From positions 1 through 38,371 of IMG/VR virus record IMGVR_UViG_2563366865_000004: a DNA stretch of 38,371 bases. One strand, given 5' to 3'. This document shows positions 34,684 through 38,371 of the stretch, one piece after another. The position numbers and the translations under genes were made by a program. Each line of letters starts with the position of its first letter. Position 1 is the first letter of the stretch. The notes under the pieces were generated by a model. The model was not told the DNA's origin, made no database searches, and was given only the letters and a program-made list of their open reading frames with translations. The DNA is from a virus (Duplodnaviria; Heunggongvirae; Uroviricota; Caudoviricetes).

Positions 34684-34844
34684 GAGGACTTGCATACAAT
34701 CCCGGCATTCTTCCGGCAGAAATGATTATTCGCCAACGAGTAAAGCCAATGCCATCGAGAGAGGAATTGCTTAAGAGAAATTCTTTTCCTTCAGTAAATC
34801 AAAACAAATATCTGAATGCGATGTGGCGGAGTGGGAAGAAATGA
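34680..34844 (+). CDS. Small hypothetical protein, 54 aa (not in ORF track)
   Basis: ATGA overlaps at both ends suggesting translational coupling. Confidence 0.35.
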
Positions 34845-35416
34845 AACAAATGTCACTAATTGAGATGGATGGATTTCTGAAAGGTAAATGCATCCCACGA
34901 GATTTAAAGGTTAACGAAACAAACGCTGAATATCTGGTGCGTAAGTTCGGTGAGCTTGAATCAAAACTGGAAACGGCGTTGCGGGAGTGTCGTTCTGCTG
35001 GAATCACGATTGATAACCTTGAGGCCAAGTGCGCGGCGCTGGCAGCGGAGAGTGCGGGGCTAAAGGCGATATGTGATGACCGTCGCAGGTTCATCATGAA
35101 TGGGGTGCAGATGGGTTATATCAAGGTGCCAGCAGCGGAAACAGATCCAGACCTTGAGACAATTCGCATTGCTATATCACCACAAAAGCCCATTCCAGCC
35201 ACTGATGCTTTCCTGTCTGAAGTGCGGGCGCAGGGGGTGGATGCTGCTATAGAAGCTGCAAAAAATCTGGTGGTCCAAGAATATGAGTATAAGGATTTCA
35301 AAGCGGCGCAGAGTGATTGCTGTATGCACCCTGGTTCAGACCTGGTAGGGAAGGTTGAAATGACTGAGTGGTTAGTTGACTTTGCTGCCCAGCTTCGCAA
35401 AGGAGGCAACCAGTGA
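34841..35416 (+). CDS. Hypothetical protein, 191 aa
   Basis: ATG start chosen over the upstream GTG of the supplied ORF. Confidence 0.5.
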
Positions 35417-36072
35417 GCGAAATTAATTACCAGGCACTACGTGAGGCGGCAGAACGTGCAACTCCAGCAATGGAACGCCTGTTAATGTTGCCAGTTGATG
35501 ATGATCTGATAAGCGAACAGGAACTTAAAGATAGCGGTGTTGATATTGATGCCCTCAACGCCTTCAAATTTCTGGCCGGACCAGAAACCGTGCTGGCGCT
35601 ACTGGATGAACGGGAAAGAAACCAGCAATACATAAAACGCCGCGATCAGGAGAACGAGGATATTGCGCTAACGGTAGGGAAACTGCTAATCGAAAACGGC
35701 CGGCTTGTTGCCGATACGCTACGCCACTTAGCTGATAACGAAATCGACTCTGATTATTTTGCTATCACCTCAACGAATGAGAACGGTACTGAAATTGATC
35801 ATGAGATGGCTATTACCGATTACGCACTGCAAGCTGCCGGAACTGTAGACGAATTGGTTGCGGCGCTGGAATCCGCAGAGAAGCGCATAGCAGAACTGGA
35901 AGCGCGGGAAATACTGCTCCCGGAACGTAGCAGTATGCTTCATCGAACAGATTTTCACGATGATTACCAAACGGTAATGGCATACAAAGTTTCTGAAGTC
36001 ATCGCTGCAATCCGCGCCGCTGGCATTCGCATCAAAGGAGACGCAGGAGAACAAAACGATGAAAAACCGTAA
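35413..36072 (+). CDS. Ead/Ea22-like early protein, 219 aa
   Basis: N-terminus [18 protein letters not shown] resembles Ea22-like prophage proteins as remembered. Confidence 0.6.
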   Translation: MSEINYQALREAAERATPAMERLLMLPVDDDLISEQELKDSGVDIDALNAFKFLAGPETVLALLDERERNQQYIKRRDQENEDIALTVGKLLIENGRLVADTLRHLADNEIDSDYFAITSTNENGTEIDHEMAITDYALQAAGTVDELVAALESAEKRIAELEAREILLPERSSMLHRTDFHDDYQTVMAYKVSEVIAAIRAAGIRIKGDAGEQNDEKP

Positions 36073-36235
36073 AGCAAAATTACTTCTTTTATCGCGTTCG
36101 ACGGGGTACGAGAAGCTACCAATCAGCAATCACAAACGGGCGGTGATCGGCATGTTTGGTAGGGTGGTATTCGCATTTAACTATAAACCCACCGCGTCGC
36201 GGAACAGACGAGAGAAGGGGTACGCAGTGCGATGA
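36059..36235 (+). CDS. Small basic ORF, 58 aa, starting MKNRKAK (first of a tandem pair)
   Basis: ATG embedded in a 21-nt motif repeated at 36231; may be a recombination scar rather than a gene. Confidence 0.3.
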   Translation: MKNRKAKLLLLSRSTGYEKLPISNHKRAVIGMFGRVVFAFNYKPTASRNRREKGYAVR

Positions 36236-36423
36236 AAAACCGTAAGGCAAAGATGCTGATAGCAAAGCCGGGGCAGCGTATCCGTATCTCAAATCGGCTT
36301 GTTATTTACTATAGATATCTGGGTTTTAGGGGGTGTTCCTCTATTCGTTTTTACGGTGTCTGGCGAAACAGAAGCGCAGCACAAAACCGCTGGAAAAACC
36401 ACTTTCGCACTAAAGGAGAGTGA
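36232..36423 (+). CDS. Small basic ORF, 63 aa, starting MKNRKAK (second of the pair)
   Basis: Same start motif; ATGA overlap with preceding ORF. Confidence 0.3.
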   Translation: MKNRKAKMLIAKPGQRIRISNRLVIYYRYLGFRGCSSIRFYGVWRNRSAAQNRWKNHFRTKGE

Positions 36424-36424
36424 T

Positions 36425-37312
36425 ATGACCACTATAACCGATAAGAAACAGTATCCAGGCGAGCAATATCTTAATGAGCTGATCACCAACATAGAGTTTG
36501 CTGCAAGGGCACCAGTTGAAGTCGTGAGAGCAATGGCAGCAGAGCTACAGAAGCGGCGCGAAGCTGATAGTGCCGAACCTGCAAGTAATCATGAAGAGTT
36601 GCCACTTGATTATCTCCAAGGTCAAAAAGATGGTCTTGAATGGGCTGCGCAGCTTGCAGAAGCAAATCACCCACAAACTGGCGACTGGCTTTACGATGAC
36701 CCGCTGGAGCTGGCTAAAGCTATCAGAAAAGGTCCTGACATGCCCGAATTCGATGGACCAACTCCGATAACGCCGGAGGCCATTGAAAACGCAATTGAAT
36801 ATATCCGCAGTATCGCTTTTCACATCGATGAAGACGATTACCACGGCAAGCATATTGCGTATTTCATGCGACAAGCACTGGTCTGGCTGGAAGGGCATTC
36901 ATGCAGCGACGACAGACAGGGTAAAGCCGAGAATCAACCAGTACGCGGCAACCAGGCTGCCGAATCCAATCGCGGTAATGAGTGGACCGGCAATCCTGAT
37001 ATTGATAACGCCATCATCATGCTCGATCGCATAGATACGCTGGAAAGTTGCGATGATGACCGTATTGAGGCGGTTAAGACTGTTTTGCGTAGACTGGCTG
37101 GCAACTATCCGGTAACTCCGGATGGTTGGATAAGCTGTAGTGAGCGAATGCCCCCTCAAGATGATTGGATTTTAATTTATTCAAAGCACGGCGAGTATAT
37201 GGCAGGACAGGTACAAGGGGAATACGTGGAGTTGAGCGACGGCACTTTATCGTGGTTAGGGAACGCCTTGTTCTGGATGCCGCTACCAGAACCGCCGCAG
37301 GAGGTGAAGTGA
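36425..37312 (+). CDS. Early protein with C-terminal DUF551-like domain, 295 aa
   Basis: AAGGAG RBS before ATG at 36425; C-terminal DGWISCSERMPPQDDWILIYSKHGEY ... WLGNALFWMPLPEPP resembles DUF551 proteins as remembered. Confidence 0.6.
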   Translation: MTTITDKKQYPGEQYLNELITNIEFAARAPVEVVRAMAAELQKRREADSAEPASNHEELPLDYLQGQKDGLEWAAQLAEANHPQTGDWLYDDPLELAKAIRKGPDMPEFDGPTPITPEAIENAIEYIRSIAFHIDEDDYHGKHIAYFMRQALVWLEGHSCSDDRQGKAENQPVRGNQAAESNRGNEWTGNPDIDNAIIMLDRIDTLESCDDDRIEAVKTVLRRLAGNYPVTPDGWISCSERMPPQDDWILIYSKHGEYMAGQVQGEYVELSDGTLSWLGNALFWMPLPEPPQEVK

Positions 37313-37596: not shown

Positions 37597-37873
37597 CCTG
37601 CAACTTGCCGTTAAAGGTGAATACTTCGATGCCATGATTCGCGGAGAGAAAACGGAAGAGTATCGCCTGTGTAATGACTACTGGAATAAGCGAATTATGT
37701 TCCGCGAGTATGACCGCCTGATTATCACAAAGGGATATCCGAAGCGCGACGATTCCAGCCGTAGAATTGATGTTCCGTATGACGGATATGAAATCAAGAC
37801 AATCACACATCCGCACTTCGGCGATAAACCGGTAAAGGTGTTCGCGATAAAGGTGAATATCAGCAATGAATAA
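37589..37873 (+). CDS. Hypothetical protein, 94 aa
   Basis: ORF overlapping the previous stop. Confidence 0.55.
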   Translation: MANLQLAVKGEYFDAMIRGEKTEEYRLCNDYWNKRIMFREYDRLIITKGYPKRDDSSRRIDVPYDGYEIKTITHPHFGDKPVKVFAIKVNISNE

Positions 37874-37945
37874 CAATCCTCGCATTCGCGGGGATTTCTT
37901 TTATCTGAACTCGCTACGGCGGGTTTTGTTTTATGGAGATGATAA

Positions 37946-38113
37946 ATGCACTTCCGAGTCACAGGTGAATGGAATGGAGAACCATTCAACAGAGTTATCG
38001 AAGCAGAGAACATCAATGACTGCTATGACCACTGGATGATATGGGCGCAGATAGCACATGCAGACGTAACCAATATTCGAATTGAAGAACTGAAAGAACA
38101 CCAAGCCGCCTGA
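37946..38113 (+). CDS. Small hypothetical protein, 55 aa (not in ORF track)
   Basis: GGAG RBS; followed directly by a terminator. Confidence 0.4.
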   Translation: MHFRVTGEWNGEPFNRVIEAENINDCYDHWMIWAQIAHADVTNIRIEELKEHQAA

Positions 38114-38128
38114 TGGCGGTTTTTTATT
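38105..38128 (+). terminator. Rho-independent terminator before xis
   Basis: GCCGCC-TGAT-GGCGG followed by TTTTTTATT. Confidence 0.7.
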
Positions 38129-38170
38129 GCCTGATTTGCAGGTTCGATTCCCTATTTGGAGATAGCACTC

Positions 38171-38371
38171 ATGCAACACGAACTACAGCCTGATTCACTG
38201 GTTGATTTGAAATTCATCATGGCTGATACTGGCTTTGGTAAAACCTTCATCTATGACCGGATTAAGTCCGGGGACCTGCCTAAAGCCAAAGTTATCCACG
38301 GGCGAGCAAGATGGTTATATCGTGACCATTGTGAATTCAAAAATAAGCTCTTAAGCCGCGCCAATGGGTAA
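38171..38371 (+). CDS. xis: Excisionase-like small helix-turn-helix protein, 66 aa; stop coincides with window end
   Basis: LVDLKFIMADTGFGKTFIYDRIKSGDLPKAKVIHGRARWLYRDHCEF typical of small phage excisionase / AlpA-type proteins. Confidence 0.65.
   Translation: MQHELQPDSLVDLKFIMADTGFGKTFIYDRIKSGDLPKAKVIHGRARWLYRDHCEFKNKLLSRANG

Follow-up and report, generated by a model that had tools for sequence, protein, structure and literature searches.

We analyzed a viral DNA of 38,371 nucleotides (nt) (IMG/VR record IMGVR_UViG_2563366865_000004, Caudoviricetes), called here the window in its whole length, which is a P22-like/lambdoid Escherichia coli prophage. Our subject is a pair of small open reading frames (ORFs) at positions 36059-36423 of the window, both of which open with the residues MKNRKAK, encoded within a short direct repeat. 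The two ORFs, of 58 and 63 amino acids (aa), had been pointed out in an earlier note on this DNA, and we confirmed them as described. Judged by sequence comparison, ORF1 and ORF2 are translationally coupled paralogous protein-coding genes under purifying selection, and the repeat is the family-wide conserved translation-start region (CG, the ATG and the KNRKAK codons) of two adjacent paralogous genes. The features in question are the following.

36059-36235, plus strand: ORF1, 58 aa, beginning MKNRKAKLLLL, a member of family PHROG 1380 with body subtype A and the internal tail (ending NRREKGYAVR, then stop).
36232-36423, plus strand: ORF2, 63 aa, beginning MKNRKAKMLIA, a member of PHROG 1380 with body subtype C and the terminal tail (ending SAAQNRWKNHFRTKGE, then stop).
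36057-36078, plus strand: repeat copy 1, CGATGAAAAACCGTAAAGCAAA, containing the ORF1 start codon and codons 2-7 (KNRKAK).
36230-36251, plus strand: repeat copy 2, CGATGAAAAACCGTAAGGCAAA, holding the ATGA overlap (36232-36235) of the ORF1 stop and the ORF2 start.

Both predicted proteins are very basic: ORF1 has a mass of 6.7 kDa, an isoelectric point (pI) of 11.6 and a net charge of about +13, and ORF2 a mass of 7.7 kDa, a pI of 11.8 and a net charge of about +16. The window contains the 21-nt motif GATGAAAAACCGTAARGCAAA exactly twice, on the plus strand in both cases (36058-36078 and 36231-36251); two matches were found in none of 100 dinucleotide-preserving shuffles. Adding the preceding C gives a 22-nt direct repeat, CGATGAAAAACCGTAARGCAAA, with one mismatch and a spacing of 173 nt. 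The two copies had thus been correctly noticed before; the coordinate given for the first one (36057) was off by one, since the motif as written starts at 36058 and only its 22-nt form at 36057. Both ATGs had also been said to overlap the preceding stop. This holds for the second, where the TGA of ORF1 and the ATG of ORF2 share the ATGA at 36232-36235. It does not hold for the first: the ATG of ORF1 precedes by 8 nt the TAA (36070-36072) that ends the upstream Ea22-like gene, the two ORFs overlapping by 14 nt, and that TAA sits inside repeat copy 1 (CCG TAA AGC). Codons 2-4 (AAA AAC CGT) are invariant at the nucleotide level in 63-64 of the 64 unique family genes described below, which argues for an extra nucleotide-level constraint on the repeat; its source could be translation initiation, recombinational homogenisation, or both.

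A profile search matched ORF1 to phrog_1380 (62 positions) with an E-value of 5.8e-23, residues 1-58 falling on profile positions 1-60, and ORF2 with an E-value of 5.5e-13, residues 1-63 falling on positions 1-62. By these matches the two ORFs are paralogues belonging to a catalogued phage family of uncharacterised proteins. A direct BLASTP comparison of ORF1 with ORF2 aligned the first 10 residues only, and the two sequences had been thought to diverge after MKNRKAK; this view needs correction, as both proteins match the profile from end to end and have the invariant positions L9, S-N, G and A..N-R in common. The invariant and near-invariant columns were read from alignments of 7, 44 and 58 members, both window ORFs included, and define the family motifs: an N-terminal MKNRKAK with L9, a central (I/V)SN(R/H), a Gly, and a C-terminal A..NR. 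All of them are present in both ORFs. Known members include p50 and p51 of phiV10, p08 of VT2-Sakai (ECs_1168), L0068 of 933W and gp057 of RCS47, which resemble the window ORFs in size, charge, motifs, tandem arrangement and the Ea22/DUF551 neighbourhood. Nothing essential differs between them and the window, which carries subtypes A and C and lacks phrog_13831, a gene found ahead of the array in many relatives. The annotation of phiV10 already remarks on the likeness of p50 to p51.

The family is narrow. A word-indexed search returned 174 clusters at 90% identity, all labelled "hypothetical", whose named sources are all Enterobacteriaceae (Escherichia, Salmonella, Citrobacter and Enterobacter), and an exhaustive hidden Markov model (HMM) search of 1.84 billion representatives yielded no more than 55 clusters, defined at 50% identity. 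Proteins identical to ORF1 and to ORF2 are already recorded in NCBI as hypothetical, each on about 95 contigs. The segment 35900-36600 (701 nt sampled) is 100% identical to the chromosomes of the avian E. coli MS1657 and of VTB96929v, the ORF1-ORF2 pair is 100% identical on a 90-kb plasmid of a porcine enterotoxigenic E. coli (ETEC; NZ_CP122828.1), and similar arrays are found on P1-like phage-plasmids such as RCS47. Since the pair or similar arrays occur on a prophage, on the ETEC plasmid and on P1-like phage-plasmids, the cassette moves between phage types. Two distant members, P0155 (L089 4001-4180) and P0151 (L090 4001-4198), lie in other phage regions rather than beside Ea22, among helicase/primase replication genes or in a nin-like region before RusA and Q; because of them, we do not regard the family as tied to one neighbourhood. 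Longer homologues were considered as possible domain-fusion clues and rejected: the extensions of P0142, P0152, P0144 and P0148 match no Pfam domain, P0139 proved to be a spurious repeat protein, and P0141 and P0140 are fusions that arise by read-through into the gene next door.

We assessed protein coding on 127 family genes (64 unique) from 88 loci, drawn from 80 IMG/VR contigs, from RefSeq and phage records and from the window itself. All 127 copies retain their length and frame. Within subtypes, the ratio of nonsynonymous to synonymous substitution rates (dN/dS) ranges from 0.05 to 0.44 where nonsynonymous changes occur (0.37 in the subtype of ORF1 and 0.33 in that of ORF2); the smallest cluster, of 3 genes, has none. 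The corresponding pooled ratio of polymorphic sites (pN/pS) is 0.40 in the annotated frame; the two other sense frames give 0.93 and 0.83, and the three antisense frames give 0.93, 0.61 and 1.73. The variable alignment columns number 72, 61 and 124 at codon positions 1, 2 and 3. Alternative frames contain 97-246 stops across the 64 genes, the antisense frames 97-205. Conserved residues are encoded by codons of different families: the invariant Ser by AGC/AGT as well as TCA/TCG/TCT, the invariant Arg by CGC, AGG and AGA, and the invariant Gly by all four of its codons. The earlier suggestion of a tandem pair of small peptides is thus supported, as a coding pair, by the phrog_1380 matches, the frame-specific pN/pS and the codon switches.

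Comparison of the 88 loci further indicates that the family is a cassette array with 0-3 copies per phage, with crossovers located in the conserved 5' motif and the SAAQNR block. Arrays consist of one, two or three genes, and every internal junction is the same 4-nt ATGA overlap. The gene bodies fall into five subtypes, A to E, with 25-40% identity and conserved ends, and these combine as A+C (the window), A+D, B+D, B+E, E+D and B+E+D; C, D and E also occur alone. The tail follows the position in the array: a copy that precedes another ends in NRR(K/E)KGYAVR, and the last copy ends in SAAQNRWKNH(L/F)RTKGE, its AAAGGAG being the Shine-Dalgarno sequence (SD) of the next gene. Subtype E is seen with both tails, and P0040 joins an A body to the terminal tail, which places crossovers in the conserved SAAQNR block. 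Related phages form a series of variants: Ea22 and DUF551 joined directly by ATCAAAGGAGAGTGATATG with no cassette (L003), Ea22 followed by C (L019), Ea22 followed by A and C (the window), and Ea22 followed by phrog_13831, A and C (L002). L019 has the junction found upstream of ORF1 in the window and then runs straight into the C-type gene, so that the two differ by one 173-nt ORF1 cassette bounded by the 22-nt repeat.

At least 8 different genes follow the junction AAAGGAG(N)2-3TGATATG, and at least 4 different contexts lie upstream of the 5' block. Cassettes are gained, lost and exchanged between phages at the conserved 5' motif, at the SAAQNR block and at the AAAGGAG SD linkers. The boundary had been read as a mosaic junction typical of lambdoid phages; the same boundary sequence does flank different genes, in a series with zero, one, two and three cassettes, and the reading stands for a recombination site of cassettes. 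It fails for a scar, the sequence being the functional 5' end of a gene family. Lambdoid phages have mosaic gene boundaries with short conserved linkers (mosaicism of the HK97/HK022/HK620 type), and linker-mediated mosaic exchange is itself classical lambdoid biology. As there, short gene-end sequences (AAAGGAG..TGATATG; GGAGARCAAARCGATG) border on different genes in different phages and are found at novel joints. Unlike there, the conserved ends of PHROG 1380 also fall within the coding sequence of a single gene family, so that recombination shuffles paralogous cassettes and swaps C-terminal tails.

The window also carries an unusual joint upstream of the array. Its Ea22-like protein has an unusual C-terminus (ending KGDAGEQNDEKP, then stop), which joins the AAAGGAG linker to AAAGAGACGCAGGAG, the sequence that normally ends the phrog_13831 gene; phrog_13831 appears to be missing from the window through this joint. 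In many relatives, phrog_13831 is an unrelated, very basic 58-aa ORF (MRVACIGLLPYPTRFW...AAKRRRRTKR, pI 12) directly upstream of the array and ATGA-coupled (L002 1144-1320, L004 1028-1204, L006 896-1072, L007 1028-1204). On the other side, the gene that most often comes immediately after the array in other phages is phrog_926, a conserved Cys-rich ORF of 69 aa (MAIAASYTMHLYCDC.QCT...; L006 1441-1650, L007 1567-1776, L004 1564-1773), whose place is taken by DUF551 in the window.

The immediate neighbours and translation signals of the pair are the following.

35413-36072, plus strand: upstream neighbour, an Ead/Ea22-like gene (Pfam PF13935 Ead_Ea22, E-value 9.4e-27; also the RefSeq label in a 100% identical genome).
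36045-36049, plus strand: AGGAG, the SD of ORF1, 9 nt before the ATG and within the conserved block GGAGARCAAARCGATGAAAAACCGT.
36373-36425, plus strand: conserved 3' block, with the C-terminal codons AQNRWKNHFRTKGE and their stop codon, then the linker as far as the first base of the following ATG.
36425-37312, plus strand: downstream neighbour, a gene with a DUF551 domain (Pfam PF04448, E-value 3.5e-10; RefSeq annotation).

The block GGAGARCAAARCGATGAAAAACCGT precedes the first family copy in most of the loci. At the other end, the AAAGGAG at 36412-36418 lies inside the last codons of ORF2 and is the SD for the DUF551 gene, whose ATG starts 1 nt past the ORF2 stop (TGATATG). The 53 nt of 36373-36425 alone are 90-94% identical to hundreds of E. 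coli genomes and Shiga toxin (Stx) phages.

On the plus strand, the order of genes is a cI-type repressor (helix-turn-helix and S24), RecT, Gp157, DUF5405, the Ea22-like gene, ORF1, ORF2 and DUF551, followed by DUF4752 and ASCH proteins (RefSeq labels in the identical genome) and then by the last ORF of the region, which has no Pfam match and looks excisionase-like from its sequence. ORF1 and ORF2 lie within the early-left (pL-type) operon under repressor control, in an accessory region that corresponds to exo-xis. Given this operon position, the pair is expected to be silent in the lysogen and expressed early upon induction or infection. A promoter search of the region found 0 promoter-like sites, against 3.5 expected, and no internal promoter. 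Terminator-like sites in the region number 6, against 2.3 expected; one of them, at 36327-36352 on the plus strand inside ORF2, is a weak terminator-like hairpin (36327-36343) followed by a T-run.

A lead to function came from scanning 58 aligned family members against all of Pfam, in which distant members gave a match to SRA_like (PF08136) of 19 bits, below the gathering threshold of 25 bits; among the sub-threshold families it was the one with a suggestive biology. Sra (RpsV) is a basic protein of 45 aa, tightly bound to the 30S ribosomal subunit (PMC10502375). Aligned by hhalign with E. coli Sra alone, the family obtained a probability of 28.6%; with an alignment of 17 Sra sequences it obtained 74.7% (P 2.6e-5) over 28 N-terminal columns, for a pair picked after the Pfam-wide scan. 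The alignment runs from Met1 and pairs residues that are invariant in both families (N-R-x-A-K/R-x-x-L ... I-S-N). Its score of 26.3 was reached by none of 300 column-shuffled Sra alignments (mean 9.1, standard deviation 2.1, maximum 19.1). An HMM of Sra scored P0155 at 20.9 bits and P0151 at 17.0 bits, against a maximum of 10.9 among 3,680 shuffled family sequences; conversely, an HMM of the distant subgroup scored Sra at 16.5-20.9 bits, against a maximum of 14.8 over 3,400 shuffles. P0155 lies on a lambdoid-type phage contig (helicase, primase, RusA, Q antiterminator, holin) and has a precomputed PF08136 hit.

Sra and the phage family are alike in being tiny, very basic and found in Enterobacteriaceae, and about 25 N-terminal residues align from Met1 (MKSNRQARHILG...KISNQRK in Sra, MKNRKAK.LL...RISNRR in the phage proteins). 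They differ in several respects. The phage proteins are 13-20 residues longer, with a variable insert of 8-14 residues between the two motifs, and have a distinct conserved C-terminal helix, SAAQNRWKNH, which Sra lacks. Sra is encoded by a chromosomal single gene under RpoS/ppGpp control (bdm-sra), whereas the phage family consists of phage early genes. The nucleotide likeness to the start of K-12 sra (ATGAAA..AACCGT..GCA) was given no weight, as these codons are common in E. coli.

The best overall explanation, to which we assign a probability of about 0.8, is that ORF1 and ORF2 are a PHROG 1380 gene pair in a cassette array, encoding basic proteins that would be made early and most likely bind nucleic acid, the ribosome being our preferred candidate for their target. 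Their translation would be chained to that of their neighbours, through the SD and the 14-nt overlap with Ea22, the ATGA between them, and the AAAGGAG serving DUF551. The two proteins would be produced early after infection or induction and would most likely bind nucleic acid, given +13 to +16 charges over some 60 residues and the small alpha-beta3-alpha fold predicted for them. As their target we favour the host ribosome (16S rRNA or the 30S subunit), because the N-terminal half of the family resembles 30S-bound Sra. The diversified subtypes and variable copy number suggest an accessory role, of a conflict or host-takeover type, rather than a core phage function.

Several observations weigh against this explanation. 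The family has no model in Pfam, NCBIfam or PADLOC, and sequence and profile searches of Pfam, NCBIfam, PADLOC and PDB with the window ORFs gave no match (for Pfam and PADLOC at E<=1). The NCBI annotation pipeline PGAP leaves both ORFs unannotated in the 100% identical chromosome of E. coli MS1657, where the interval corresponding to 36073-36424 is empty. The dN/dS values of 0.3-0.45 reflect moderate constraint only. Our literature search returned no paper on phrog_1380, ECs1168 or VT2-Sap08, the matches to L0068 being unrelated. The other points concern Sra. The window ORFs score only 2.4 and 2.5 bits with the Sra HMM, and neither hits PF08136 at E<=1 or reaches its gathering threshold; the similarity is limited to some 26-28 N-terminal positions; all scores lie under the Pfam gathering score, even that of the best member, P0155 (19-20.9 bits); and the database-wide significance of the match is marginal, since it was found after scanning 58 sequences against all of Pfam. 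In the literature, we found no structural data on the binding site of Sra, and no solved structure of Sra that could serve as a modelling template. Nor did the literature hold ribosome profiling (Ribo-seq) or mass spectrometry data on the translation of family genes.

For these reasons (the low scores of the window ORFs, the N-terminal match, the sub-threshold scores and the choice of the pair after the scan), we hold the descent of the family from a common ancestor with Sra to be plausible, at roughly even odds on the sequence evidence, and ribosome binding by the family to be a tentative reading, at well under even odds. The fullest version is rather doubtful: that PHROG 1380 is a diversified, phage-borne relative of Sra, of which temperate enterobacterial phages would express one to three basic mini-proteins at the onset of lytic development, to dock on the 30S subunit and remodel, protect or silence host ribosomes, the array evolving by recombination at its conserved 5' and 3' ends and so yielding variant combinations. 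If true, chromosomal sra and PHROG 1380 would have a common origin.

Among the alternatives, the one that survives best is that the two ORFs encode generic conflict proteins (anti-defence, superinfection exclusion or toxic host takeover) that bind an acidic host protein or a nucleic acid unrelated to the ribosome, the likeness to Sra being convergent. We consider this possible, at well under even odds. It fits the location in a variable accessory region with 0-3 copies, the five divergent subtypes (25-40% identity) shuffled in combination between conserved ends, and the narrowness of the family. The coinciding invariant positions (N-R-x-A-K/R ... I-S-N), on the other hand, argue for common descent with Sra rather than for composition. 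No known anti-defence family was identified, and no PADLOC match was found at E<=1, a weak test because PADLOC lacks anti-defence models. The exo-xis region of lambda and Stx phages encodes small accessory proteins, expressed early, that act on the balance of lysis and lysogeny or on host physiology (PMC4195576, PMC10789677). The window ORFs share the kind of genomic region and the expression class of Ea8.5, Orf60a, Orf61, Orf63 and Orf73; we found no sequence relationship of these proteins to PHROG 1380, and the two papers on the exo-xis region do not mention the family.

It is improbable that the ORFs are small sequence-specific DNA-binding regulators acting on phage or host DNA through an AP2 or integrase arm-binding fold (a three-stranded sheet with a helix). 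AlphaFold2 predicted an alpha-beta3-alpha topology for ORF1 (mean predicted local distance difference test, pLDDT, 73.4) and the same topology for ORF2 (pLDDT 64.7). The predicted fold had no significant structural match, and the AP2/integrase candidate was rejected in both the fold test and the profile test, with no significant likeness to AP2 or to the N-terminal domains of Int.

Nor do we give much credit, and if anything slightly less, to the view that the ORFs are coupling or spacer ORFs, translated leaders that carry ribosomes from Ea22-like to DUF551 and whose peptides have no function. Each junction does have an overlap and an SD, and codons 2-4 and the C-terminal AAAGGAG are conserved as nucleotides. 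Cassette-free phages, however, fuse Ea22 directly to DUF551 via the same AAAGGAGAGTGATATG linker, so that no spacer is needed; internal residues far from the junctions (S-N, G, N-R) are kept through synonymous changes; and a consistent fold is predicted for both paralogues.

The possibility that the repeat is an illegitimate junction, and the ORFs accidental in non-coding recombination debris, is very remote. The earlier note had raised it, and had named an alignment with related phages as the check; that alignment revealed that single-copy relatives are common and that they keep the ORF conserved and intact, with its length unchanged. In favour of debris, the region is highly mosaic, cassette gain and loss are bounded by the repeat, and PGAP annotates neither ORF. 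An accident of debris, however, would not account for two ORFs that match a 62-position protein profile from end to end, for the frame-specific pN/pS with its third-position excess, for the synonymous codon-family switches at conserved residues, or for length and frame kept in 127 copies. Equally remote is a structured RNA or antisense gene as the real feature, with the sense ORFs incidental, for which there are antisense ORFs of 58 and 67 aa and the hairpin at 36327-36343, and against which stand no Rfam match at E<=1 in the interval, an RNA folding z-score of only -1.3, and antisense frames with stops and pN/pS values as given above.

The ORF1-ORF2 pair is an ordinary accessory-gene pair with one testable lead. 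That the family is catalogued as phrog_1380 and that p50 and p51 of phiV10 resemble each other was already known; what is new relative to the literature searched is the modular array with position-dependent tails and the possible relationship to Sra. Our results annotate two overlooked small genes, where RefSeq is blank in an identical genome, and illustrate cleanly how lambdoid and P22-like phages can gain, lose and recombine small accessory cassettes by way of short conserved sequences at gene ends. Members of the family are carried by the Stx-converting phages of enterohaemorrhagic E. coli (ECs_1168 in Sakai Sp5, L0068 in 933W) as well as by P1-like phage-plasmids. Should the link to Sra be true, the family would be a widespread and directly testable case of phage early proteins targeting the ribosome, and would offer a handle on Sra itself, whose function has been unexplained since 2001.

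Other observations concern the surroundings of the pair. Two Rfam matches in the window were below threshold and are probably due to chance: STnc130 at 38094-38221 on the minus strand (27 bits, gathering score 55) and RsmY at 37766-37897 on the plus strand (19 bits, gathering score 57). Upstream of the Ea22-like gene, at 34823-35416 on the plus strand, lies an ORF of 197 aa with no Pfam match; the 100% identical RefSeq genome has there only a 126-nt "incomplete" pseudogene call (34841-34966), the remainder being unannotated, and the ORF is possibly an Ea22-type gene that has been disrupted or wrongly annotated. Mosaicism extends to the Ea22-like protein: the version in the window (219 aa, 35413-36072) and that of BEN5202 (250 aa, L002 392-1144) have common N- and C-terminal parts and central segments that are unlike each other.

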